Shown one piece after another: positions 1 to 26,887 of a DNA stretch of 64,000 nucleotides. Origin of the DNA: Eledone cirrhosa (Eukaryota); assembly GCA_964016885.1 (NCBI GenBank), contig OZ024741.1, forward strand, positions 55,862,001-55,926,000. The letters are read 5' to 3'. The notes beneath the pieces were generated by a model, which saw only the letters and a list, made by a program, of their open reading frames with translations, was not told the DNA's origin and searched no databases. Both the position numbers and the translations under genes were made by a program. The stretch's first letter is position 1; each line of letters opens with the position of its first letter.

Positions 1-1019
1 AGATAGTATTAGCAATTGGAAAGACCAACGGAAACATTGTTCCCTCGGTCCGATTCGACGAGAGTCGATCGTTCCTATCGTTCCTATACATATATATATA
101 CACGCACGCGCGCGCACATACGGAGGCGTTCGTGTACATATACAGAAAGTATACACACATATAGACGCTCAGACACATAGATACAGGGTGTAAAAACGGC
201 CTTGTGAATAAGTGAGTACAAATATAAAAATATAAAAATATATAAAAATGGCTGCGAAATAACAGAAAATATCTGGAGTGGAAAACGCAAGTGACTAGTT
301 GTATGTATGTGTGTGTGTATGTGTGTGTGTACGTACTGAATGTATGGATGTGTAAGTGTGCGTATGTATATAAGTATGTATATATTTATGTGTGTGTATG
401 AGTGTATGAGTATACAGTCACGTACGTACGCGTGATTAGATATACATGGGGCGAGGTGTATGTATATATATATGTGCATCCTGTGTGTGTATGTATACTT
501 GCATACGCTTTTGTCTGCACGTTTTGCGTGTATGTATATATATTGTTTATAGATATACGTTTCTTATAGATATATGTGTGTATGTACGCGTGTACCATAA
601 ATTATTGTTCCATTTTTATAAATATATCGAGAATGATACTTTCTTTTTACTATTACACTCCCTTACCTCTTTTTCTTCCACATATAAGCGTACGCGCGCG
701 TGCGTGTGTTTATACGCGCGCCTTCATATTCTTATAATGTATCTAATACCCTGTTTTTCTGTATACCTGTCAACCGGACACCCTTATCATGTCTGTGTCT
801 GTAGTTACATATACACAGATATACTTACCCTCATATATATATTTACGCACACATTTTCACTATACACACACATTTGTACATACATACATATGTACATATG
901 TGAGTGTATATACATACATATACACACACCTAACTATATTTCTTTAAAAAAATTTTATATATTTTATGTCTATTGTATTACCTTCATCTATATTTACATA
1001 ATTTTTTTTACATTTCTTG

Positions 1020-4000
1020 TGTGATGAAGACGCCTCTGCGGTTTCTCTGCCATCAAGGAGGCGAATATCGTCACCATTTTCAAGAAGGGAAATAGAAACT
1101 TTTGTGGAAACTATCGTGTAATATTCTCTCTTGTCCATCACAGGGAAGATCCTATCCAGGATCCTTCTCAAGCCCCTCCTGACCTTGTAATATTCTCTCT
1201 TGTCCATCACAAGGAAGATCCTCGCCAGGATCCTTCTCAAGCCCCTCCTGACCGTGTAATAGTCTCTCTTGTCCATCACAAGGAAGATCCTCGCCAGGAT
1301 CCTTCTCAAGCCCCTCCTGACCGTGTAATAGTCTCTCTTGTCCATCACAGGGAAGATCCTCGCCAGGATCCTTCTCAAGCCCCTCCTGACCGTGTAATAT
1401 TCTCTCTTGTCCATCACAGGGAAGATCCTCGCCAGGATCCTTCTCAAGCCCCTCCTGACCGTGTAATATTCTCTCTTGTCCATCACAAGGAAGATCCTAT
1501 CCAGGATCCTTCTCAAGCCCCTCCTGACCTTGTAATATTCTCTCTTGTCCATCACAAGGAAGATCCTCGCCAGGATCCTTCTCAAGCCCCTCCTGACCTT
1601 GTAATATTCTCTCTTGTCCATCACAGGGAAGATCCTCGCCAGGATCCTTCTCAAGCCCCTCCTGACCTTGTAATATTCTCTCTTGTCCATCACAAGGAAG
1701 ATCCTCGCCAGGATCCTTCTCAAGCCCCTCCTGACCGTGTAATATTCTCTCTTGTCCATCACAGGGAAGATCCTCGCCAGGATCCTTCTCAAGCCCCTCC
1801 TGACCGTGTAATATTCTCTCTTGTCCATCACAAGGAAGATCCTATCCAGGATCCTTCTCAAGCCCCTCCTGACCTTGTAATATTCTCTCTTGTCCATCAC
1901 AAGGAAGATCCTCGCCAGGATCCTTCTCAAGCCCCTCCTGACCTTGTAATATTCTCTCTTGTCCATCACAGGGAAGATCCTCGCCAGGATCCTTCTCAAG
2001 CCCCTCCTGACCTTGTAATATTCTCTCTTGTCCATCACAAGGAAGATCCTCGCCAGGATCCTTCTCAAGCCCCTCCTGACCGTGTAATATTCTCTCTTGT
2101 CCATCACAAGGAAGATCCTATCCAGGATCCTTCTCAAGCCCCTCCTGACCTTGTAATATTCTCTCTTGTCCATCACAGGGAAGATCCTCGCCAGGATCCT
2201 TCTCAAGCCCCTCCTGACCTTGTAATAGTCTCTCTTGTCCATCACAGGGAAGATCCTCGCCAGGATCCTTCTCAAGCCCCTCCTGACCGTGTAATATTCT
2301 CTCTTGTCCATCACAAGGAAGATCCTATCCAGGATCCTTCTCAAGCCCCTCCTGACCTTGTAATATTCTCTCTTGTCCATCACAGGGAAGATCCTCGCCA
2401 GGATCCTTCTCAAGCCCCTCCTGACCGTGTAATATTCTCTCTTGTCCATCACAAGGAAGATCCTATCCAGGATCCTTCTCAAGCCCCTCCTGACCTTGTA
2501 ATATTCTCTCTTGTCCATCACAGGGAAGATCCTCGCCAGGATCCTTCTCAAGCCCCTCCTGACCGTGTAATATTCTCTCTTGTCCATCACAAGGAAGATC
2601 CTATCCAGGATCCTTCTCAAGCCCCTCCTGACCTTGTAATATTCTCTCTTGTCCATCACAGGGAAGATCCTCGCCAGGATCCTTCTCAAGCCCCTCCTGA
2701 CCTTGTAATATTCTCTCTTGTCCATCACAAGGAAGATCCTCGCCAGGATCCTTCTCAAGCCCCTCCTGACCGTGTAATATTCTCTCTTGTCCATCACAAG
2801 GAAGATCCTATCCAGGATCCTTCTCAAGCCCCTCCTGACCTTGTAATATTCTCTCTTGTCCATCACAGGGAAGATCCTCGCCAGGATCCTTCTCAAGCCC
2901 CTCCTGACCTTGTAATAGTCTCTCTTGTCCATCACAGGGAAGATCCTCGCCAGGATCCTTCTCAAGCCCCTCCTGACCTTGTAATAGTCTCTCTTGTCCA
3001 TCACAAGGAAGATCCTATCCAGGATCCTTCTCAAGCCCCTCCTGACCTTGTAATATTCTCTCTTGTCCATCACAGGGAAGATCCTCGCCAGGATCCTTCT
3101 CAAGCCCCTCCTGACCGTGTAATATTCTCTCTTGTCCATCACAAGGAAGATCCTATCCAGGATCCTTCTCAAGCCCCTCCTGACCTTGTAATATTCTCTC
3201 TTGTCCATCACAGGGAAGATCCTCGCCAGGATCCTTCTCAAGCCCCTCCTGACCGTGTAATATTCTCTCTTGTCCATCACAGGGAAGATCCTCGCCAGGA
3301 TCCTTCTCAAGCCCCTCCTGACAGTGTAATATTCTCTCTTGTCCATCACAAGGAAGATCCTCGCCAGGATCCTTCTCAAGCCCCTCCTGACCTTGTAATA
3401 TTCTCTCTTGTCCATCACAGGGAAGATCCTCGCCAGGATCCTTCTCAAGCCCCTCCTGACCGTGTAATATTCTCTCTTGTCCATCACAGGGAAGATCCTC
3501 GCCAGGATCCTTCTCAAGCCCCTCCTGACCTTGTAATATTCTCTCTTGTCCATCACAAGGAAGATCCTCGCCAGGATCCTTCTCAAGCCCCTCCTGACCG
3601 TGTAATATTCTCTCTTGTCCATCACAAGGAAGATCCTCGCCAGGATCCTTCTCAAGCCCCTCCTGACCGTGTAATATTCTCTCTTGTCCATCACAAGGAA
3701 GATCCTCGCCAGGATCCTTCTCAAGCCCCTCCTGACCTTGTAATATTCTCTCTTGTCCATCACAAGGAAGATCCTCGCCAGGATCCTTCTCAAGCCCCTC
3801 CTGACCGTGTAATATTCTCTCTTGTCCATCACAAGGAAGATCCTCGCCAGGATCCTTCTCAAGCCCCTCCTGACCTTGTAATATTCTCTCTTGTCCATCA
3901 CAGGGAAGATCCTCGCCAGGATCCTTCTCAAGCCCCTCCTGACCGTGTAATATTCTCTCTTGTCCATCACAAGGAAGATCCTCGCCAGGATCCTTCTCAA

Positions 4001-6680
4001 GCCCCTCCTGACCGTGTAATATTCTCTCTTGTCCATCACAAGGAAGATCCTATCCAGGATCCTTCTCAAGCCCCTCCTGACCGTGTAATATTCTCTCTTG
4101 TCCATCACAGGGAAGATCCTCGCCAGGATCCTTCTCAAGCCCCTCCTGACCGTGTAATATTCTCTCTTGTCCATCACAGGGAAGATCCTCGCCAGGATCC
4201 TTCTCAAGCCCCTCCTGACCGTGTAATATTCTCTCTTGTCCATCACAGGGAAGATCCTCGCCAGGATCCTTCTCAAGCCCCTCCTGACCTTGTAATATTC
4301 TCTCTTGTCCATCACAAGGAAGATCCTCGCCAGGATCCTTCTCAAGCCCCTCCTGACCGTGTAATATTCTCTCTTGTCCATCACAGGGAAGATCCTCGCC
4401 AGGATCCTTCTCAAGCCCCTCCTGACCGTGTAATATTCTCTCTTGTCCATCACAAGGAAGATCCTCGCCAGGATCCTTCTCAAGCCCCTCCTGACCGTGT
4501 AATATTCTCTCTTGTCCATCACAAGGAAGATCCTATCCAGGATCCTTCTCAAGCCCCTCCTGACCGTGTAATATTCTCTCTTGTCCATCACAAGGAAGAT
4601 CCTCGCCAGGATCCTTCTCAAGCCCCTCCTGACCGTGTAATATTCTCTCTTGTCCATCACAGGGAAGATCCTCGCCAGGATCCTTCTCAAGCCCCTCCTG
4701 ACCGTGTAATATTCTCTCTTGTCCATCACAGGGAAGATCCTCGCCAGGATCCTTCTCAAGCCCCTCCTGACCGTGTAATATTCTCTCTTGTCCATCACAG
4801 GGAAGATCCTCGCCAGGATCCTTCTCAAGCCCCTCCTGACCGTGTAATATTCTCTCTTGTCCATCACAGGGAAGATCCTCGCCAGGATCCTTCTCAAGCC
4901 CCTCCTGACCTTGTAATATTCTCTCTTGTCCATCACAAGGAAGATCCTCGCCAGGATCCTTCTCAAGCCCCTCCTGACCGTGTAATATTCTCTCTTGTCC
5001 ATCACAAGGAAGATCCTCGCCAGGATCCTTCTCAAGCCCCTCCTGACCTTGTAATATTCTCTCTTGTCCATCACAAGGAAGATCCTCGCCAGGATCCTTC
5101 TCAAGCCCCTCCTGACCGTGTAATATTCTCTCTTGTCCATCACAAGGAAGATCCTCGCCAGGATCCTTCTCAAGCCCCTCCTGACCGTGTAATATTCTCT
5201 CTTGTCCATCACAAGGAAGATCCTATCCAGGATCCTTCTCAAGCCCCTCCTGACCGTGTAATATTCTCTCTTGTCCATCACAAGGAAGATCCTCGCCAGG
5301 ATCCTTCTCAAGCCCCTCCTGACCGTGTAATATTCTCTCTTGTCCATCACAGGGAAGATCCTCGCCAGGATCCTTCTCAAGCCCCTCCTGACCGTGTAAT
5401 ATTCTCTCTTGTCCATCACAAGGAAGATCCTCGCCAGGATCCTTCTCAAGCCCCTCCTGACCGTGTAATAGTCTCTCTTGTCCATCACAGGGAAGATCCT
5501 CGCCATGATCCTTCTCAAGCCCCTCCTGACCTTGTCAAAGGATATCCTCCTTGAAAGTCAATGTGGTTTCAGAGCCAACCGAGGAACCATCGATATGATT
5601 TTCTCCGTGAGACAAATCCAGGAAAAGTGTAGAGAGCAACAAAAACCCTTGGAAATGATTTCCTACGATCTTGAAAAAGCGTTTGACAGTGTTCCAAGAT
5701 CAGCCATGTGGCAGGTCCTCAAATACTATGGCTGCCCCGAGAAATTTACGACATTCATCTGAGCTCTAGAGGAGGGAATGATGGGTCATGTCCAACATCA
5801 AACCGACCTTTCGGATCCCTTCCCCACCATAGGAAGCTTGAAACAAGGATGCGTACTTGCTCCTACCCTCTTTTCCATTAACTTGGCGGCAATGATTGGG
5901 GAGATTCCAGACGACAACCCAGGAATCGACCTTCGATACCGCACCGATGGAGGCCTCTTCAACATAGCTCGCCCTCGATCCAGGACTCGAACAATAGACG
6001 CTCGAGTCACAGAGCTCCAATACACCGATGACAACTGCAGACCTCCAGAACTCAGCGGACAACTTCTCCAGAGCGTACGTGTGCTACAGACTCACCATCA
6101 ACGTGGTAAAAACCAAATTCCTGCTCCAACCACGATCAGGACATCAACCACCACCTGGAGTCAAAATTACCATCAGCTGACTTGACCCGGAGAATTTTGA
6201 ACCATTTCCATACCTTGGCAGTGTACTAACATCTACTGCATCCGCTGAAAAAAACGTCGATAACCGAATCAAGGCCGTCCAAGCAGCTTGCGGGAAGCTA
6301 TTCAAAAGAGTCTTCGGCAATCCTGAACTAACACAAACCACCAAGTTCATGGTCTACCAAGCTGCTGTAATTTCGACAATCCTGTACGCAGGTGAAACCT
6401 GGGTACTCTACCGAAGAGACGTCCACAAACTTGAACGATTTCATCTCATGAAACTTGTCAAATCCTACAGATTCTGTGGCAGAACCGGATCACAAACACC
6501 AAAGTTCTCTTCCACGTTAAGATGGAGAGCCTAGAAACCATCATGACAAGCTGCCAACTTCGATGGGCCGAACACCTTGCTTGAAAGCCAAACATCCAAC
6601 TACCCAAACAAATCTTCTTCTCTGAGCTTGCATCTGGCAAGATACCACGTGGCACGTCGTCGATTCAAGGATCAGCTCAC
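1020..6680 (+). mobile_element. 5'-truncated, decayed RTE-clade LINE interrupted by a tandem expansion
   Basis: IVTIFKKGNRNFCGNYR, then after the array SITGKILAMILLKPLL..ESQCGFRANRGTIDMIF..DLEKAFDSV, KQGCVLAPTLF, QYTDD, FPYLGS, ILYAGETW, RFKDQL; frameshifts and stops. Confidence 0.9.
1118..5533. repeat. 63-bp minisatellite, ~70 copies, derived from LINE RT sequence
   Basis: Unit GTAATATTCTCTCTTGTCCATCACA(G/A)GGAAGATCCT(CG/AT)CCAGGATCCTTCTCAAGCCCCTCCTGACC(G/T)T, directly visible. Confidence 0.98.
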
Positions 6681-9604
6681 AATATTTGATGAAAATGCAG
6701 GATATTACAATGATGCGCTAAAAAAGGCAGGTTATAAAAATAATATAGAATATATAGACAGTAATAATCCGAGTCTTAATCCTGATAAAAATAATGGCAT
6801 ATATAAACGAAATTCTATATATTCTAATAATTGTAATTCAAACACCTGTACTGTGAATAAATCGGGGCAAAGAACCAGAACTAAATCAGTTATATGGTTT
6901 GCCCCCCCCCCCCCCCCCCCCCCCCCTGCGTCTGTAGCAGTAAGAACACCAATAGCTAATCTATTTTTTAAAGCTTTAGATAGTTCATTTCCTAGTCAAC
7001 ATAAATACCACTCCATATTTAATAGACACACAATTAAACTGTCTTATTCTACAACTATGAATATGGCCCATAACATCGCTAAAATAAACAGTATAATTCT
7101 AAACCAAAATCAACATAATGCTATTAATAATAGTGTTAATATAAATAATAACAAATCAAAATGTAATTGTAGAAATAAACCAGATTGCCCTCTGCAAAAT
7201 AATTGTCTGGATAGAAATCTGGTGTATAAATGCACCGTAAAAACAAATAACAACACATACAACTATATAGGAGCAACTTCTTCGACATTTAAATCGAGAT
7301 TTGCGAATCACAAATGCTCATTTTCGAATTTTAATAGGAAGTCTTCGACTTCTTTATCACAACTTATATGGTCATTAAAAGACAAAAATTTAAAATACTC
7401 GATCTTTTGGACGAAGCTTTGTAATAGTAAAATATATACCAACTCATCCATATCAATTAACTGCAACCTCTGTACAAAGGAGACCCTATTAATAATTAAT
7501 AATTATGAAAACTTAATTAACAAAAAAAGTGAATTATTCTCAAACTGCCTTCATAAAACTGTGTCTACATTCCAAGCCTCGCAAAACGTCAGGAAAAAAA
7601 CAGTAAACAATCAGGCCTGGTTTTGACGTCTCCTATCAACTGTTTGACATAAAAAGTCATAACGGTTTATAAAACTTTAATAATGCTTTATCTTCTAATC
7701 ATTTATGGTAGAATTAATGTTAGAATGAAGGACACTCGTTTGATAACTTGTTTAATTGATAGATATTCATATCTTATGATTTTTTGGATATTTATAATTT
7801 TGATTCAGATCTGTATTTATTTGTCTCTGTTTTAAATATATAGTTTAGATATTTAACTTGTAAATTTACTGATTATAATTGAACTGTGGATCATTCATGC
7901 GTTTCCATATTTTATTTTATATATTTTACTCATTTCGAGTATGTTTTGGGGGACTCAGAAAGTTAGATTTGCATTTATTTTTTATGTATATCTAGGTATA
8001 AATATAATAAACCATAATAGCCGACAAATATTGGTCTATCTCTCCACTGAACTGGAGGTAAAACTACATTTTTAGCATTACTAATAATGATTATAATTAT
8101 TATTTTTTATTAAATGTATGCCGTTTCATTAATACCTATAATAATATCTCTATATAGTTGTACAAATATCTTTATCTAGTGTAATAACATAATCGTAGTT
8201 ACATTTATAAATAATTTAGACACTCAAATGACCTTATATTGTTATAAGTGTTTGATATTCCCTGGAAGGTCGAACTTATATAATCATTTACTTAATATAA
8301 TATAATAAAATATAATTTAATTTAACTTATTTTATTTTATTTTATTTTATTTTATTTTATTTTATTTTATTTTATTTTATTTTAATTATATTTAGATTAC
8401 TTTCGGCTTTTTCAAATATTTAGCTCCTCTTTATATCACATTCGCTAAATTTTATTTGTATATCCATTTTGTATCATTAGGACTGATATAGTTTTGACTT
8501 ATATCTTTATAGTATATATCAACTAAATGAAAATAATTGATATAAAACATTAATTCTTTAGCAATATTTTTAACAACATTTTTAACTATATATATTTTTG
8601 AACAATATTTTCAGTAACTTATTTACTATATTACATTATTGTATTATATTATATATATTTGAAAGGTATCACCTCAATTATAAACAAATAATAAACTATA
8701 ATCTTTGTATTTTTTTATCAATACATATATATAATTAAAAATTCGGACTTATTTATGTTTAGTTATAAGGCCGGTTGATACTTTAGGCACTCCAACTATT
8801 TAACAATAAATTCTTTAATAATTATAACTATAATTATTTTATAAATTATATTATAGAAACGGTTGTCAATATTATAAATAACTTTGGTAAAGATTACCTT
8901 CGTGAAGTTATAAAAGCATTATAGATATTTTCTTTCTCGTGTTTCGTAAATCCTTTAAATTTGTTTTCATAAAATTTGAATTTTAGAAATTAAACATAAT
9001 TATATTATAATATTAATACAAATACCTATTAACTTTTAAAACCTAAAATATTATTCATTACCCTGAAATAACTTAAATTAAATATTTTGAAAATTAACCG
9101 CCAACTATATTATTTTGGACATGTGTTGCTTATATGGAGATCTGTGTATATAAACTTGAACATAAATTACTCCCCTTTGTCTCTCTCTCTCTCTTTAATC
9201 ATCTTTCATCTGTTTTTTCAAGCCACCTACTAAATATATTATCACATCAGCTGTTTCTTCCTCTATGCTTTCCTTTCCCTCCTCTTTCTCCAGTAGTTTT
9301 TAAAAATTAAAAAAATATATAACTGTTATATTGATGCCATGTATTTCTTAAACTCTAATACACGCACCTTCTCTATTGTTTGTATTATGTTATCTCATTT
9401 TCTCAATATTAGGGTATAAATATTGAGTTTTGTCATAAGTTAATCACTACCATGACTGAATCTTAACCATCTACTATGTCAGGGTATCTTATGTATCATT
9501 TTATTTTATCTGATGAGGACGTACTGTTGAACTTAGCCCAATACCTCTGAAATATGTATAATAAAATATAATTGATCACAAGAATATCTATTTTGTTAAT
9601 ATTT

Positions 9605-12163: not shown

Positions 12164-13906
12164 TTAGCTGTATACTTTGTGAAATGTTTTATGGAATTTA
12201 TGCAAGCAGATAGAAAACAAGTCAGTGCGTCTATTTATTATAGAATCTAGATTAGAGATAATGGTAAACTTTTCATTTAGACAGAGATTGCAGATTTTAG
12301 ATAGAGAACTGTTCAAGTTCAATGAGGAGGCAGAAGAAACCTTCTTCCAAAAGATGCTATATTTAATGTTTTTGTCTTTCAAGGACCATATGAGTTCTGA
12401 GAGAGCCGTGTTAGTTCTTTTAAGTTTGTATTTAAAAGACGAATGACGGTTATAAAGACGAGCTTTAAAAGAGGTGGAAGTGGAGCCAAAATAGGTGAAG
12501 GAATTGGTGTCAGTTATAACTTTACATTCGTAAATTAAGTTTTTATCAAGACAGTGGTTGTTGAGAGGACATTTATTTTTAATAGGGCAATTGCAATTGC
12601 AATTAGAGAGATTATTAATGAGTGACCTAGTGTTATCTATAGAAGGAATTGGATTGGAGAAGTTGTTTGCGATAGGAATAATAGTTTCTTGATTTAGAAT
12701 GGGATTATGAACATTTAGCGAAGTTGTGTTTGACGTTGTATTTGGGTTTGTAGAAATTAGCCTAGGGTTTACAATGACGTCGGGAGTACTATTATTATGA
12801 AATTCAGTGTTGGAAGGAAGAGATTTAGTATTTAGTATTTTATTGTTGTGTTTAGAGATAATGTTGGAAATGTTGGAGGATGTAGAATAAGAAAATTTTA
12901 TGGTGTGTTTGTTAAATATTTTACTATAGATATATGAGGGAGGGAAGCATTTATTTAAGGCACTAAAGAATAATTTAGGAATATTGTTATTAATAGAGAT
13001 GGAGAAAGGAGCATTATACCAGATTATGTTTTTGTATCTAGGTCTTTTATTAAAGTTATTGGAATGATCATGATTAATTATTCTACTGTAATTTCTTCTA
13101 GAATTTGTTTCTTTACTATATTTGATTTTATCAGGATAGCCGGCTTTAGAAAGCGCGTTATTATAGTAATTGGCGTTAGCATCAAAGATGTTTTTATTAG
13201 AAGATAGGTTAGATATTCTTTTTCCAATATTACTAACTATAGCATTCTTGATATTAGTAGGATGGTTAGATTTAAAGTTAACATAATTTAGGTTCTCATA
13301 GTTTTTATGGTAAGGGTAATATAGGCCAGTGTCAAGATTAAGAGATACATCCAAGAAATTAGCTAGTTTGATACTGTTATCAAATTCAATTTTTAGGTTA
13401 TGTTGGTTAAAGAGATTACGTATATTGTTCTTAATAATATTAAGGTTAACTATATTGCAATTTAAGATAGTAAAGAGTCCATCGTCACGATAAATTCCAC
13501 CGCGAAGTTGAGGAATTTTCCGACTCAAAAAGTTCAAAATAAAGATACCAATTAAATCAGTCAATTGGGATGAATCGGATGCTCCCATTGTGATGTCGAA
13601 GTTGTTAGAGGTATCGGCTCTGGTCCAATATTCGTTGTTGAACTCTAGGATGGTTTTACGTGCGGTGAGAATGATGTGAAGTTCATCTGTGGTGATGTCA
13701 GAATATTTAAGTGCGAAAGATAGAGCATTATTGAGAAGTGAAGGCGAAATGGAGGAATAGTAGCTGGCAATATCAAATTGAACAAATTTTAGTTTGTTTT
13801 TATTATTCAATTTGTTGAACCAGCTAATCACTTCAGAAGTACCAAACCATAAATTTAGGTTCAAAGAAGAGCAATTAGAACGAACCTGTGGGATAATTCT
13901 ATCCAA
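12164..13906 (-). CDS. Penelope-type reverse transcriptase plus GIY-YIG endonuclease (partial, 580 aa open)
   Basis: QFDIASYYSSI, FDITMGASDS, GIYRDDG, NFLDVSL, SNHP, CNCPIKNKCPLNNHCL, IYEC..YFG..FKARL, CNLCLNEK. Confidence 0.88.
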   Translation of the reverse strand: MDRIIPQVRSNCSSLNLNLWFGTSEVISWFNKLNNKNKLKFVQFDIASYYSSISPSLLNNALSFALKYSDITTDELHIILTARKTILEFNNEYWTRADTSNNFDITMGASDSSQLTDLIGIFILNFLSRKIPQLRGGIYRDDGLFTILNCNIVNLNIIKNNIRNLFNQHNLKIEFDNSIKLANFLDVSLNLDTGLYYPYHKNYENLNYVNFKSNHPTNIKNAIVSNIGKRISNLSSNKNIFDANANYYNNALSKAGYPDKIKYSKETNSRRNYSRIINHDHSNNFNKRPRYKNIIWYNAPFSISINNNIPKLFFSALNKCFPPSYIYSKIFNKHTIKFSYSTSSNISNIISKHNNKILNTKSLPSNTEFHNNSTPDVIVNPRLISTNPNTTSNTTSLNVHNPILNQETIIPIANNFSNPIPSIDNTRSLINNLSNCNCNCPIKNKCPLNNHCLDKNLIYECKVITDTNSFTYFGSTSTSFKARLYNRHSSFKYKLKRTNTALSELIWSLKDKNIKYSIFWKKVSSASSLNLNSSLSKICNLCLNEKFTIISNLDSIINRRTDLFSICLHKFHKTFHKVYS

Positions 13907-14180
13907 GATGGCTTTACTAACAACCCCCAGATCAGATTTAGAGGGGGCGATTAATCTAACAGGTAGTTAAGTGCGAAAATTGTTTTTGTGATCCTTGAGA
14001 TTTATCCTCGAGTTCTTGGGAGGAATGGTTCTGTCTTTTTTTCAATGCCAAGTTTTGACATAATCTCAGAGGCTTTATTGTACTACAATAAAACTCACCT
14101 CCTACATATATATATAATATATATATATATGGCTGTCTGTGATCTATATACACTGGTCATAGACATACACACACACACAT

Positions 14181-21482: not shown

Positions 21483-22509
21483 TGAATATCTTGAATACCA
21501 CAGACACATTATAACATGTACAGGGTCGGATTAAACTAACGACAGGGCCTATAGTTTATCTTATAAATGGACCCGAATTTTTTTTTTACTTGTATATTAC
21601 CTGAAAGTTCTAAATGGACTTCTTTCGGTTTCATGAAATTAATGTGTAAGTGTTTGAGCATTCCACAGACACATGTACCCCTAATGCAATTCTCAAAGAT
21701 ATTTATCGGGACACACACCGTGTGCAGCAAGGCGGGCGCTTTGAGTTATAGGTATAGTCCATCGGACAAGCTTCCAAAAGTGTTCGTCTACCGAATTTCA
21801 TTCACAAGACATAGGTCGACCTGGTGCTATGGTAAATAACACCCAAGATGCTACGTATCGAACTTCTTAACCATTCGGCCATGATGTAACACTTGTAAAA
21901 GTACAAGGGAGAAACTAAATAATTCTTCCCTTCAACGTACTGAGTTCAAATCTAGCCGCGGTCAACTTTGCCTTTTAATCTTTCAGGGGTCGATAAAATA
22001 AGTACCAGTCGAGGACGGTGGATTAAGGGTATTGTTACAGGGTTAGACGAGATGCCTTGCGGTATATGTCCCGGTTCTTGGTGTTCTTTGTCCTTGGATG
22101 GTAGACTTAATCCGTCATTTTCCCGGTTTAACACAACCCTATTGTACTTGAGTTCCTTCAGTGGTACCCACTCTGTTGCTGGTGTTTAAGCCATGTTCCC
22201 GGTTAATAACTTCCTACTTTACTCCCACCCATCCTAGAGAGCTAAAAATAACATACTTCCATGTCCTTTACTCCCCACCTACTCTGATTATTCAGCTTAT
22301 ATTTAGTAAATTAGGTTATCTAACATGAAAAAATAACTTCTTGTTAGTTCCGGATGTATTTTTCCTAGTATTTAGGTTTTGTTTACTCATACCTTGAGCA
22401 AGTCTCCTTTCAAACGGGTTTATTGATTTTACCAGAGTCGCTTTTTATTCTTGTTTATCCTTTGTCTATTGTTTCTGTTAAATTTTCTACAATGTCCACT
22501 CTGCTGATT

Positions 22510-23485
22510 CTGTTGTGAGATAGGAGACAAGTGTGTAAGCTATATTGTTGTTGTGAGATAGGAGACAAGTGTGTAAGCTATATTGTTGTTGTGAGATAGG
22601 AGACTGATATGTAAGATATATTGTTGTTGTGAGATAGGAGACTGATATGTAAGATATATTGTTGTTGTGAGATAGGAGACAAGTGTGTAAGCTATATTGT
22701 TGTTGTGAGATAGGAGACTGATATGTAAGCTATATTGTTGTTGTGAGATAGGAGACTGATATGTAAGATATATTGTTGTTGTGAGATAGGAGACTGATAT
22801 GTAAGATATATTGTTGTTGTGAGATAGGAGACTGATATGTAAGATATATTGTTGTTGTGAGATAGGAGACTGATATGTAAGATATATTGTTGTTGTGAGA
22901 TAGGAGACTGATATGTAAGATATATTGTTGTTGTGAGATAGGAGACTGATATGTAAGATATATTGTTGTTGTGAGATAGGAGACTGATATGTAAGATATA
23001 TTGTTGTTGTGAGATAGGAGACTGATATGTAAGATATATTGTTGTTGTGAGATAGGAGACTGATATGTAAGATATATTGTTGTTGTGAGATAGGAGACTG
23101 ATATGTAAGATATATTGTTGTTGTGAGATAGGAGACTGGTATGTAAGATATATTGTTGTTGTGAGATAGGAGACTGATATGTAAGATATATTGTTGTTGT
23201 GAGATAGGAGACTGGTATGTAAGATATATTGTTGTTGTGAGATAGGAGACTGGTATGTAAGATATATTGTTGTTGTGAGATAGGAGACTGGTATGTAAGA
23301 TATATTGTTGTTGTGAGATAGGAGACTGGTATGTAAGATATATTGTTGTTGTGAGATAGGAGACTGATATGTAAGATATATTGTTGTTGTGAGGCAGGTA
23401 TGTAAGCTATATTGTTGTTGTGAGATGTGATACAGGTATCTAAGATAAATTGCTGTTGTGAGATGTGATACAGGTGTGTAAGTTA
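22510..23485. repeat. 38-bp minisatellite, ~24 copies
   Basis: Unit GAGATAGGAGACTGATATGTAAGATATATTGTTGTTGT. Confidence 0.97.
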
Positions 23486-23834
23486 TAGCGAAGGGACTAC
23501 CTTTACGTCTCCACTCGTGTCCGGACTGAATCTCCCTGCGTGATGCTCACTTGTTTCGCGTCTGGCCAGAGAACATAGCAAAACTCACACCCATTCGCTC
23601 CAGTCATCACAAAACGTCCACGCCCTGCCGCGGCCAACTAAGAGACCCGGCCCACTCTTCCGATGTGATATCGCAGGCCCTCATTGCCCCTGCACTTCCG
23701 GTTCCCTAGCTCCACAGTTATCATATGGGAGAATATAATATGAACATAAATATAAATAAAAGAAATATTATTAAGAAAACATAACATAAGAAATAATCGC
23801 TACAACATATATCAGATGACGTGTATTCCTTCCT

Positions 23835-24110
23835 ATGAAGCAATGCGACTATTTTGCTCCCTCCCACATCATGGATGCCACGGTAAATGTGAGGGTCACT
23901 GCTTCCGTTGCCGAACGGAATAAAATCCGAACATACCAAGAACTATCAAACAATTATTTTTTCCAGCCTGTGGCGTTCGAGACTTTTGGAGGAGTTGGGC
24001 CGATGACAGCGAAGTTCTTGTCATCGTTGACGACTCGCCTTACCGAGGTGTCAGGCGATGCCCATGGGGAGTTCAGCGACTTAGCCTCGCCATCACCCGC
24101 GGTAAGCTTC
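23835..24110 (+). mobile_element. Restriction-like endonuclease fragment of a CRE-type non-LTR retrotransposon
   Basis: DYFAPSH..TASVAERNKIRTYQELSNNYFFQPVAFETFGGVGP fits the AE..K..kY..F.P.a.ET.G RLE pattern. Confidence 0.7.
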
Positions 24111-24293
24111 GAGCGTAAAGGAAAAGAATGTTTGTCGATGAATGGACAATTCATCGTTTCTCTTTGTATGAATAAATGACTCCAGAAAGGGGGTGAACAA
24201 TCAAAAATTAACGATCCTTTATTAAATGTGACATTTAATAAATTACCTACAACGTCAATTTAAACATAACTTGTGGGTTAATAAAAAAAAAAG

Positions 24294-24464
24294 TGTCATA
24301 TATTCTCCGGTGCAGGAATAAGCGAATCCTTTCTCGTCTGTTCGTGTCCGCGGTTCGTGAGAAAGCTCCTGGTGTGTGACCGGATGTATCTTGCCCCCCG
24401 CTCTCTGAAAAACCATTAAGGGCAGGCAACTGCTAGTTGCTAAGCGACCATCTCAGTCACTACA
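24294..24464 (+). repeat. 171-bp direct repeat, copy 1 (LTR-like or long target-site duplication)
   Basis: TGTCATAT...CACTACA; 3 substitutions versus copy 2; preceded by A10G. Confidence 0.95.
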
Positions 24465-24863
24465 TTCACCTCGGAGCAGATTTTTTGTCGAAAAATCGAT
24501 AACGATGAAGCGAAGGACCCAAAAGGTAGTTAACAAAATGTAGAAACATGTATCAACAAATTATGAAAGAGGAAAAAAAAAAAAAAAAAATAGGTTCATG
24601 CCTGCAAGCATTAACACAGAAAAATGTACAGCAATAAATGCAAAATGCATTTTTAAAAATACCATTCGCAGTAAAGGGGCCCCATATGCGATAAACAAAA
24701 TAATTGTGCTAGGCAATGAAAATGCCATATGTAGCAAGGTTACAAAAATGCACTGAACAATGAAATGCATTTAAACTGGCAACAGCCGTAATGTTACGGG
24801 ATGTAACGAAAAATAATATATATTGATACCGCCGTAGGCAGTCAGGAGTCAAAAAGCAACACA

Positions 24864-26079
24864 ATGAAATATACAGCAAAAACAATTGGAGGAAGAAAAT
24901 AATACAATTCAGTTTATATTACTGCATAGCTTACGGGGCCAATGCTTTATCTTAACAAAAGCTAACACTCAGGAGATCCTCCCGAAACACGTCCTGCACT
25001 TTATGATTAAATACTGCCAATCCTACCTCAAGTTTAATATCAATACGGATCTCCAGAACTACGAATTTATCAAACAGAAAGAGTCAGTTACCCCTGCTGA
25101 TTTTTTTAACATCACCGAAGATACCAGCTTCCCCACACCAACCGCAACAACCTCTATTAAAAATCACCACCACGGGCTAATGTTGTACATAGTTACTCTT
25201 TACAGAGTGGAGAATGCAGGCACCGGTCTAGAGGTAAGGGATTACAAGCAGAACATCATTAAAGCCTTCAACAATCATCGTATGACGCACCCGTACAGAT
25301 ACGACCAGGACATGCTCCTCAACGGTGCCCTGAGCCATATAGTCAGGAACTATCAAGTTTTCCAAATGATGGCAGCAATAGACTATTTCCTCTATAATTA
25401 CAACACTCATGATCTGTCGCTGTTGAGACGGGGGACCATATTGGCAAGGTATGAAGGAATGCATATTATAGAGGTCATTGACCACTTCAGAGACACGCTC
25501 AATCTAACCATAACTGATTTGGTTTGTTTAGTGGTCAATGAAGCTGGAGTTAACGAGACCATGAGAGTACTGAAATCTTTAAGCGCAGGAGCATCGGATA
25601 CAGGGATTTTCCCCTACCAAAAGTCCCTGGGACTAATTAACAAATGTGTCTTTTCCGCAGGGTCAAACCCATACCTGCACACTTTCTTTGGTATGATAGG
25701 GTGTCTGGATAAAGACAAACGTTTCATTCATTCTAAGAACATAGAGCCAGGACATGTGGAAGGCGCACTCATGGACGCGCTTGCTTTCAGAGTCGCCTTC
25801 CGGTCCAAATCGTATAAACACCACTTTGTTCCGAATTAATTATTAGCAGAAGAGGCGGCTGTTGCAGACACCAAACATGCAGGATACATGATAGCTGGAC
25901 TGATGATCCAGCTTTTGGATCAGTACCCAAATCCGTCTAGCTTTATATCAACATTCAGGAAAAATCAATTGACTAAAGTTAGATCAGGAACCCTAGGCCA
26001 AGCCTTCAACGAAGCTATATCAGAAGCCCAACGAGCAGAAGCGTACCCAGGATTGCTGGAACTCATGAGAAATTCCTGA
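24864..26079 (+). pseudogene. Endogenous viral element: rhabdovirus-like nucleoprotein (N)
   Basis: MMAAIDYFL..HDLSLLRRGTILARYEG..GIFPYQKSLGLINKCVFSAGSNPYLHTFFGMIGCL resembles vesiculovirus N (AAVDMFF..FRYGTIVSRFKD..SYMPYLIDFGLSSKSPYSSVKNPAFHFW, recalled). About 400 codons overall, with a frameshift near 24890 and an in-frame TAA at 25837-25839. Confidence 0.85.
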
Positions 26080-26149
26080 TTTTAAGACCAAATCATTCAC
26101 CACCGAAAAGACATTTTTATATATATAGAACTACATTAGAAAAAAAAAG

Positions 26150-26320
26150 TGTAATATATTCTCCGGTGCAGGAATAAGCGAATCCTTTCTCGTCTGTTCG
26201 TGTCCGCGGTTCGTGAGAAAGCTCCTGGTGTGTGACCGGATGTATCTTGCCCCCCGCTCTCTGAAAAATCATTAAGGGGAGGCAACTGCTAGTTGCTAAG
26301 CGACCATCTCAGTCACTACA
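26150..26320 (+). repeat. 171-bp direct repeat, copy 2
   Basis: TGTAATAT...CACTACA; preceded by AG-A9-G. Confidence 0.95.
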
Positions 26321-26887
26321 AGCGTGTTGGCTCGCCTCAAAAATTCCCGTTGACCCTTGTGATGTGTAACTGATTGTCGCACTTGGCGAATTGATGGTCG
26401 TTTTGTTTTTGTTTCCCCTTTTGTTTCTCTCGCTTTGATCGTATATTTTGGTGTGTTGTATTCGTTAGATTCATAGTTAATTGTGTTTATTGTATGTTTT
26501 ATATTTGTGTTAATTTTTTTTTTCTCAATATAGTTTTATTATACAAAGCACATAGATAAATTTACAGTAGAATAACATAACAAATATGTTTTAAATATAT
26601 ACATAAATAACCTTACAAATGCTTACATAATATTATAAATTGCTCGCGATTCTTCCAGAAGAATATATTCTTTTAATGTTGCGATATTAAAGAAAATATA
26701 AAGGAAGAGGTGAACAACCGAGCCAACACCAGAGCAAAAGACAACAGCGTCGCGAGGAGTACCGGGCAACATTTCATTCTGAAAGAATTGTGAACAATTT
26801 GTAATGGTATTTATACAACTGTGAATAAAATTATTCGGTTTTAAAAAATAAAGTAATGTAAGTATCGTTGCTTGGAAAGGAAAAAAG

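Follow-up and report, generated by a model that had tools for sequence, protein, structure and literature searches.

A rhabdovirus nucleoprotein (N) gene lies in the window, the 64,000-nucleotide stretch of the Eledone cirrhosa genome analyzed here (contig OZ024741.1, positions 55,862,001 to 55,926,000), within an LTR chimera at positions 24116-26320 that consists, in order, of a full 3' LTR, gypsy untranslated sequence, antisense N, the A9 run of the viral gene end and a truncated 5' LTR. The original prediction had described a near-complete N gene; the rhabdovirus identity holds, while the gene is the 5'-truncated cargo of this chimera and is not free-standing with a start of its own.

Organization of the chimeric element

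The LTRs are evident as a 181-nt direct repeat (24284-24464 and 26140-26320, 98% identical), which gave 40 scored matches among 190 candidates in the genome, many of them paired 5 kb apart; that it is a long target duplication was rejected because it recurs genome-wide in such pairs. The complete 3' LTR of Ty3/gypsy type (24116-24464, minus strand, 349 nt) reads TGTAG...CTTTA in the sense of the element, has a predicted poly(A) signal at 24218-24223 and is 95-97% identical to the LTRs at C2:336.02M and C3:130.17M. It is followed by the gypsy 3' UTR, the pre-LTR tract and the last eight codons of pol, all that the window retains of this gene (24465-24945, minus strand, 84% identical to the intact element L061). 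At the other end, the truncated 5' LTR (26140-26320, minus strand) comprises the outer 181 of 349 nt and lacks R-U5, and the tRNA primer-binding site expected after a 5' LTR is not present in the window copy. The outer ends of the LTRs are TG...TA, and they are flanked by a target-site duplication, AGCG (24112-24115 and 26321-26324), which has a probability of ∼0.005 of arising here by chance and matches in length the 4-bp duplications of intact gypsy members. Neither the 181-nt repeat nor this duplication featured in the original prediction. The site struck was a host repeat, a retroelement-like fragment whose left (23945-24115) and right (26321-26525) halves, both on the plus strand, are continuous in a paralogue (L065:1085-1462). 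The left half has no Pfam match, and the repeat may be CRE-like non-LTR sequence.

Intact LTR pairs of this family enclose gag-pol with the order RT-RNaseH-integrase (L061, L097), as in Ty3/gypsy, and their primer site matches tRNA-Trp genes of the same genome, of which ARAGORN found 12 in two clusters and none at the first four pattern matches. These arrays lie at C4:353.39-353.49M (L128) and C4:277.41M (L129), with 8 and 4 genes in 9.9 kb. Since its primer-binding site is deleted, the window copy is a derivative of gypsy and not a functional element. The two LTR copies differ at 4 of 182 sites (2.2%, 95% range 0.6-5.6%), which places the insertion at about 2-11 million years ago at an assumed rate of 1-5e-9 per site per year. 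The truncated 5' LTR contains a TATA-like box (26154-26158) that points into the antisense N and is a predicted promoter, and the retained U3 would be expected to drive an antisense-N RNA of ∼1.9 kb.

Elsewhere in the window there are long tandem repeats at 944-5557 and 22359-23532, with a 69-nt-type unit containing stop-free frames of ∼1500 codons and a 38-nt unit, and long AT-rich frames resembling RT/GIY-YIG proteins at 6547-7626 and 12164-13966, which are presumably Penelope-like elements.

The nucleoprotein gene

The open plus-strand frame spans 24868-25836 and is closed by a TAA (25837-25839), beyond which 79 further codons extend to 26079. The viral portion, a pseudogene of 377 codons at 24946-26079 (plus strand, antisense to the retrotransposon), begins abruptly at 24946 and lacks ∼50 codons at its 5' end, as seen in sister copies where N extends that much further upstream. 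An ATG at 24864 had been proposed as the start, followed by a frameshift; the ATG is gypsy UTR read backwards and occurs in two of the four intact gypsy copies printed, and the apparent frameshift is not viral, as 24465-24945 is the minus-strand gypsy 3' end. Consistent with this, 32 of 51 genome matches to the frame as originally drawn span only its residues 1-28, and a probe from 24900-25000 gave 40 scored matches, of which 39 stop at 24945 and only the window continues across. The single in-frame TAA and the end of the frame (TGA, 26077-26079) were placed correctly, and the supposed interval of about 55 nt before CATTAG-A9 is 54 nt. This interval (26080-26133, plus strand) is a viral 3' UTR, in that a similar UTR follows N at C5:61.19M and 26030-26094 can be aligned with other copies. 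CATTAG-A9 (26134-26148, plus strand) reads as a viral gene end, as originally proposed, because in two more divergent N copies the 3' UTR is followed by CATCAG-A9 in one and CACT-A9 in the other. Its A-run coincides with an A10 run of the LTR and forms the second junction; a mere polypurine tract was rejected, the element being on the minus strand and the gene end common to other copies. Among the motifs originally cited, AAxDYF and RRGTILARY are present, whereas "KSPYS" is not literal and reads KCVFS in the window.

The N sequence scores 74.1 bits against the Pfam rhabdovirus nucleocapsid profile PF00945 (curated cut-off 26, E = 1.3e-20), and a comparison with the PDB listed 15 sequences at E ≤ 1, 12 of them rhabdovirus N (best E = 6e-8). 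An AlphaFold model of 24946-25836 has a pLDDT of 91.8, and in Foldseek it matched VSV N (TMq 0.75-0.81) and lyssavirus N (0.77-0.78) far better than Nipah, Ebola or Sendai N (≤0.50). The model leans on a 119-row alignment of rhabdovirus-like hits and is not independent of the sequence match; folding from the single sequence gave an unusable pLDDT of 39, and a search of the ESM Atlas with the window N returned no usable match. Profile and model together point to a real rhabdovirus N whose predicted fold is nearer to that of rhabdoviruses than to other Mononegavirales N, as had been predicted.

Relationships of the virus

Searching 1.84 billion proteins by HMMER with the window N protein retrieved 184 hits. 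Identity is 43-60% for P0018 and the four top-ranking hits. Three of these five are named octopod proteins, from Octopus bimaculoides (UniRef A0A0L8FVJ3) and Argonauta hians (GAB1603531.1, GAB1610042.1), and two are unnamed; the other hits listed are all 20-34% identical. The N phylogeny (FastTree, 71 rows) was built from eight genome copies and those hits from P0003 to P0089 that were named or had ≥380 aa, leaving out P0018, P0081 and the remaining hits. Eleven rows, namely seven of the eight genome copies, the three named octopod proteins and one unnamed protein, formed one branch with support of 100; the C1 fragment fell elsewhere on a long branch.

Matches to the viral polymerase (L) were found at at least four places (seven matches of 10 candidates, a floor), none physically linked to the window N. 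The longest, ∼4.9 kb at C3:130160000-130173467 (L097, L073), covers the RdRp, capping and part of the methyltransferase regions. It lies antisense and adjoins the 3' UTR of a gypsy element from the subfamily found in the window, with no 3' LTR seen, and is 3'-truncated and rearranged, with stops, frameshifts and a duplicated piece. For the L core, identity is 45-52% to the 120 hits listed, most of them named alpharhabdoviruses, and the scores are 460 bits for VSV, 364 for rabies and ≤44 for other families; in a tree without outgroup, made with 59 of the 120 hits as references, the core forms a long branch with no close named genus. The glycoprotein profile PF00974 had no match in the genome, but its controls were also silent.

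Between the window and three sister copies, dS is 0.37-0.68 and dN 0.025-0.028, so that dN/dS is 0.04-0.07 (dS was saturated for the more distant copies). At such divergence these low ratios indicate that the window and sister copies derive from different viral strains through separate captures. Changes private to the window amount to 42 synonymous and 10 non-synonymous ones at 866 sites, the non-synonymous being near the number predicted from the 2.2% LTR divergence. The window copy cannot yield an intact N and now likely decays neutrally, and is likely the fossil of an undescribed octopus virus.

Related copies in the genome

Ten N loci were found: the window, C2:336.02M, C4:337.14M, C5:74.85M, C2:47.05M, C219 (unplaced), C2:46.93M, C5:61.19M, an array at C28:117.48M and a fragment at C1:314.57M. 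Nine of the ten adjoin LTR-element DNA of four families, the third of which is known from a repeat, one LTR-like end and flanking sequence, the full element being unseen. Seven loci are antisense to the element and two are sense, and in both of the latter N extends to the beginning of the gene. A recurrent feature of the antisense copies is a terminal 5' LTR that is broken off within U3 (181 nt in the window, 132 nt in the C4/C5 pair, 169 nt at C2:46.93M and ∼21 nt in the C28 array), and at the four junctions checked (window, C4/C5, C2:46.93M and C219) 5-9 letters are shared. The gypsy subfamily of the window also includes a sense N between two LTRs with a primer site and a target duplication, GCCT. 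The letters ACG at the C2:336M junction, considered as a viral terminus, are those of gypsy.

The copies at C4:337.14M (L064) and C5:74.85M (L065) are one chimera with identical junctions and no primer site. They differ by 2.7% over 1144 N sites and have separate target duplications, GTTC and TATA, the latter weak as it lies in a TA repeat; this chimera was copied after it had formed. Their dN/dS of 0.23 (19 synonymous and 16 non-synonymous changes) is below the expectation for neutral decay.

The C2:47.05M and C219 copies differ by 1.8% and are flanked by different sequences; both carry a full gene junction (an A7+ gene end, a short intergenic region and an AAC start) in which N precedes an ORF that has no Pfam match and is P-like by position only. 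At C219 (L072:4260-6800), N, the junction and the whole P-like gene come first, and the sequence then re-enters the element with 54 nt duplicated. Compared with C2:47.05M, this copy has two expanded G-runs; the C2:47.05M copy has a 102-nt flank duplication.

At C28:117475500-117487800 (L069, L070), five tandem units of 1796 bp, each combining the end of an LTR, internal element sequence and the 5' half of N, precede a nested gypsy. The degraded fragment at C1:314565714-314566028 (L092/L098) belongs to a second, more distant rhabdovirus lineage and has no match to gypsy family 1, the family with which it was compared. In addition, two high-copy non-autonomous LTR families of ∼2.3 kb and 2.2 kb (L118-L123; L133/L136) have 2046 and 1610 first-look candidates and tRNA-Trp-type primer sites, with no long ORF in the first.

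Mechanism of capture

The order of the parts, the correct outer LTR ends, the target duplication and the recurrence of the layout at other loci can be read directly from the DNA, and from them we infer jumps by the reverse transcriptase and insertion by integrase. In a germ cell, the reverse transcriptase of the element would have jumped onto viral RNA and back, and its integrase would have inserted the chimera and generated the 4-bp target duplication. Capture of N through template switching by the gypsy reverse transcriptase has a probability of roughly 0.8, given the identity of the LTRs, the gypsy order of pol, the duplication and the association of nine of the ten N loci with LTR elements. 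Against it stand the weak likeness of the parental sequences at 24945/24946 (6 of 11 letters, assessed on a sister copy with 8% divergence), a junction that none of the listed contigs bridges; the A-run junction, which also fits LINE-type priming at a T-run; and the C1:314.57M locus, which lacks a gypsy family 1 match and represents a different virus lineage. The opposite orientation bias of the EVEs in Aedes cells and the dN/dS of 0.23 for the C4/C5 pair also count against it.

Two routes can be envisaged for the template switch, which are indistinguishable at the window locus. In the somewhat favored one, minus-strand synthesis would leave the element RNA just inside pol, switch to the negative-sense genome of the virus and copy it from near codon 50 of N as far as the gene end, where the A-run would pair with the T-run of plus-strand strong-stop DNA. 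This pairing would replace the normal primer-site transfer and would explain why R-U5 and the primer-binding site are missing. In the other, to which we give appreciably less weight, a nascent plus strand would be primed via its T-run on the poly(A) of an N mRNA. The genomic template is favored by the preserved N-P junction, the short A-runs, junctions away from poly(A) and the returns to internal element sequence at C219 and in the last C28 unit; the succession of N, junction, P-like gene and return at C219 is as expected of copy choice on a genome-length or read-through RNA. At the window the mRNA route is also plausible, since the insert stops exactly at the gene end.

An insert that lacks its 5' end and stops in an A-run at the viral gene end could also arise if an N mRNA had been retroposed by a LINE, target-primed at the T-run of the LTR, or had been patched by break repair into a resident gypsy, with ∼4.5 kb deleted between U3 and the end of pol. 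The window has many RT-like LINE frames, and the context of the T-run resembles a LINE cut site. Such an event is improbable, as it needs the 4.5-kb target deletion, the A-run of 9 is shorter than the LTR's own run of 10, three other LTR families have the same arrangement with junctions outside poly(A), and LTR elements adjoin nine of the ten N loci.

Present function and inheritance of the locus

It is very unlikely that the copy was co-opted by the host to encode a truncated N, such as a dominant-negative restriction factor, and it likely has no function as a protein today. A stretch of 297 codons is still open with a predicted N-like fold, and the dN/dS of 0.23 for the C4/C5 pair leaves room for constraint at a sister locus; the window copy, however, has no start of its own, contains an internal stop and is antisense to the sole nearby promoter candidate, the features that also speak against the original suggestion of a source of truncated N protein, and its low dN/dS relative to sister copies is explained by evolution in the virus. 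A role as a piRNA template is plausible.

Contigs from three runs of one sample (X1-X3) cover most of N at a depth of 3-11 per piece. An exact contig of 429 nt bridges the N-LTR junction, the flank-LTR junction is crossed by a contig with 30 letters on its short side (threshold 31), and no contig among those listed for these runs bridges the UTR-N junction (24945/24946). A contig over 25777-26301 has eight differences and lacks 18 letters at 25812-25872, otherwise following the window into the LTR; it resembles the deletion of the C4 copy and may be an allele, a conversion or an assembly-graph artefact. A contig joining 24105 to 26316, considered as an empty allele, differs in its letters from the window flank and was read as a paralogous repeat. 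In all three other samples, RAD reads that begin at L065:5272 (8, 10 and 5 molecules) extend into N; only ∼22 of their letters lie in the element. For the C4/C5 chimera at least, N is thus inherited as DNA. One RAD run (X4) had no depth over the window N, and there is no GCATGC site between 15585 and 29612.

Contamination or misassembly of exogenous virus sequence is largely refuted and hardly credible, for although X1-X3 are one sample, perhaps the source of the assembly, and one of three junctions is bridged under the 31-letter rule, the locus lies on a 416-Mb contig in a window with no ambiguous letters, has a target duplication and LTR ends, is one of ten diverged loci and derives from an RNA virus with no DNA stage, and the N of the C4/C5 chimera was read as DNA in three of three other samples. 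Germline integration from a divergent rhabdovirus of an octopod, as first proposed, is thus supported by the profile, the target duplication, the N clade, the DNA reads elsewhere and the predicted fold.

Implications

If the template-switching interpretation is right, these chimeras are base-level fossils of an LTR retrotransposon reverse transcriptase jumping onto a negative-strand virus, events that in insects are mostly inferred from proximity. At several independent loci one can read the two junctions, the target duplication and a signature that recurs, namely cargo in antisense and a 5' LTR truncated in U3. The copies also document that octopods were repeatedly infected by several strains of a rhabdovirus lineage without a close named genus. 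We raise as a speculative proposal that octopod gypsy elements might be a standing capture system for an undescribed rhabdovirus genus, in which every wave of infection would deposit LTR-driven antisense-N cassettes that can be re-mobilised and would feed a somatic piRNA pathway and provide a heritable, sequence-specific antiviral memory, and that part of the rhabdovirus signal in cephalopod transcriptomes might come from such cassettes. The loci offer a direct test of antiviral piRNAs derived from endogenous viral elements (EVEs) in a mollusc, and they advise caution, as rhabdovirus reads in cephalopod transcriptomes may be endogenous.

Comparison with known systems

Gypsy-associated capture of rhabdoviruses is already known in mosquitoes, and the cephalopod case is unreported in the literature searched, as far as the available texts go. 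No report of rhabdovirus EVEs in cephalopods was found in the main texts searched, and supplements of EVE or virome surveys could list octopods; the main text of PMC12548735 mentions neither octopus nor cephalopods. The available text of PMC10707223 deals with mussel rhabdoviruses only, and that of PMC6128900 describes PIWI/piRNA expression as ubiquitous in molluscs. The Octopus bimaculoides protein is already labelled as a rhabdovirus nucleocapsid domain in UniRef, and it and the Argonauta hians proteins, known as database entries, share the N clade (support 100) at 43-60% identity. A 2023 paper, to go by its title, reportedly concerns a rhabdovirus in cephalopod metatranscriptomes and may discuss an endogenous origin. 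The Alpharhabdovirinae (the dimarhabdovirus group, with vesiculo-, sigma- and spriviviruses) have the same N fold, as far as it is predicted, the same gene-junction pattern and an L core 45-52% identical, and differ in that their N is only 20-32% identical and that the L core found here is on a long branch among 59 references.

Endogenous bornavirus-like N (EBLN) sequences are LINE-1-retroposed copies that resemble processed pseudogenes with poly(A). Like the window copy they are mononegavirus N sequences ending at the viral gene end, whereas the window copy is bounded by LTRs and a 4-bp duplication. The LCMV-IAP recombinant DNA reportedly described by Geuking et al. in 2009 is said to have arisen by an LTR retrotransposon reverse transcriptase switching onto a non-retroviral RNA; that case is somatic and experimental, in mouse cells, and the present ones are in the germline, fixed in sequence and repeated.

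In Aedes, rhabdovirus EVEs are associated with gypsy and template switching has been proposed (10.1101/127498; PMC5497376). As in E. cirrhosa, these NIRVS/EVEs, in the accessible parts of both sources, include rhabdovirus N and L beside Ty3/gypsy and are a possible source of antisense piRNAs (10.1101/127498; PMC5497376). The differences are that here the host is a mollusc and the viral piece is enclosed by one element that has both outer LTR ends and a target duplication, its junctions being readable; that the EVEs in Aedes cells are mostly oriented like the nearest transposable element, an enrichment of the same orientation (10.1101/127498), while those found here are mostly antisense; and that a P-like gene has been captured here, P being undetected in the available portion of PMC5497376. 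Anakin, a chuvirus glycoprotein in BEL-Pao, is likewise a gene of a negative-strand RNA virus placed between LTRs and spread by retrotransposition, and is, in the accessible text, a glycoprotein of possible use to the element that results from a single or few captures (PMC7642597). In contrast, the octopod chimeras represent repeated captures of a broken, antisense N by non-coding shells of four LTR families.
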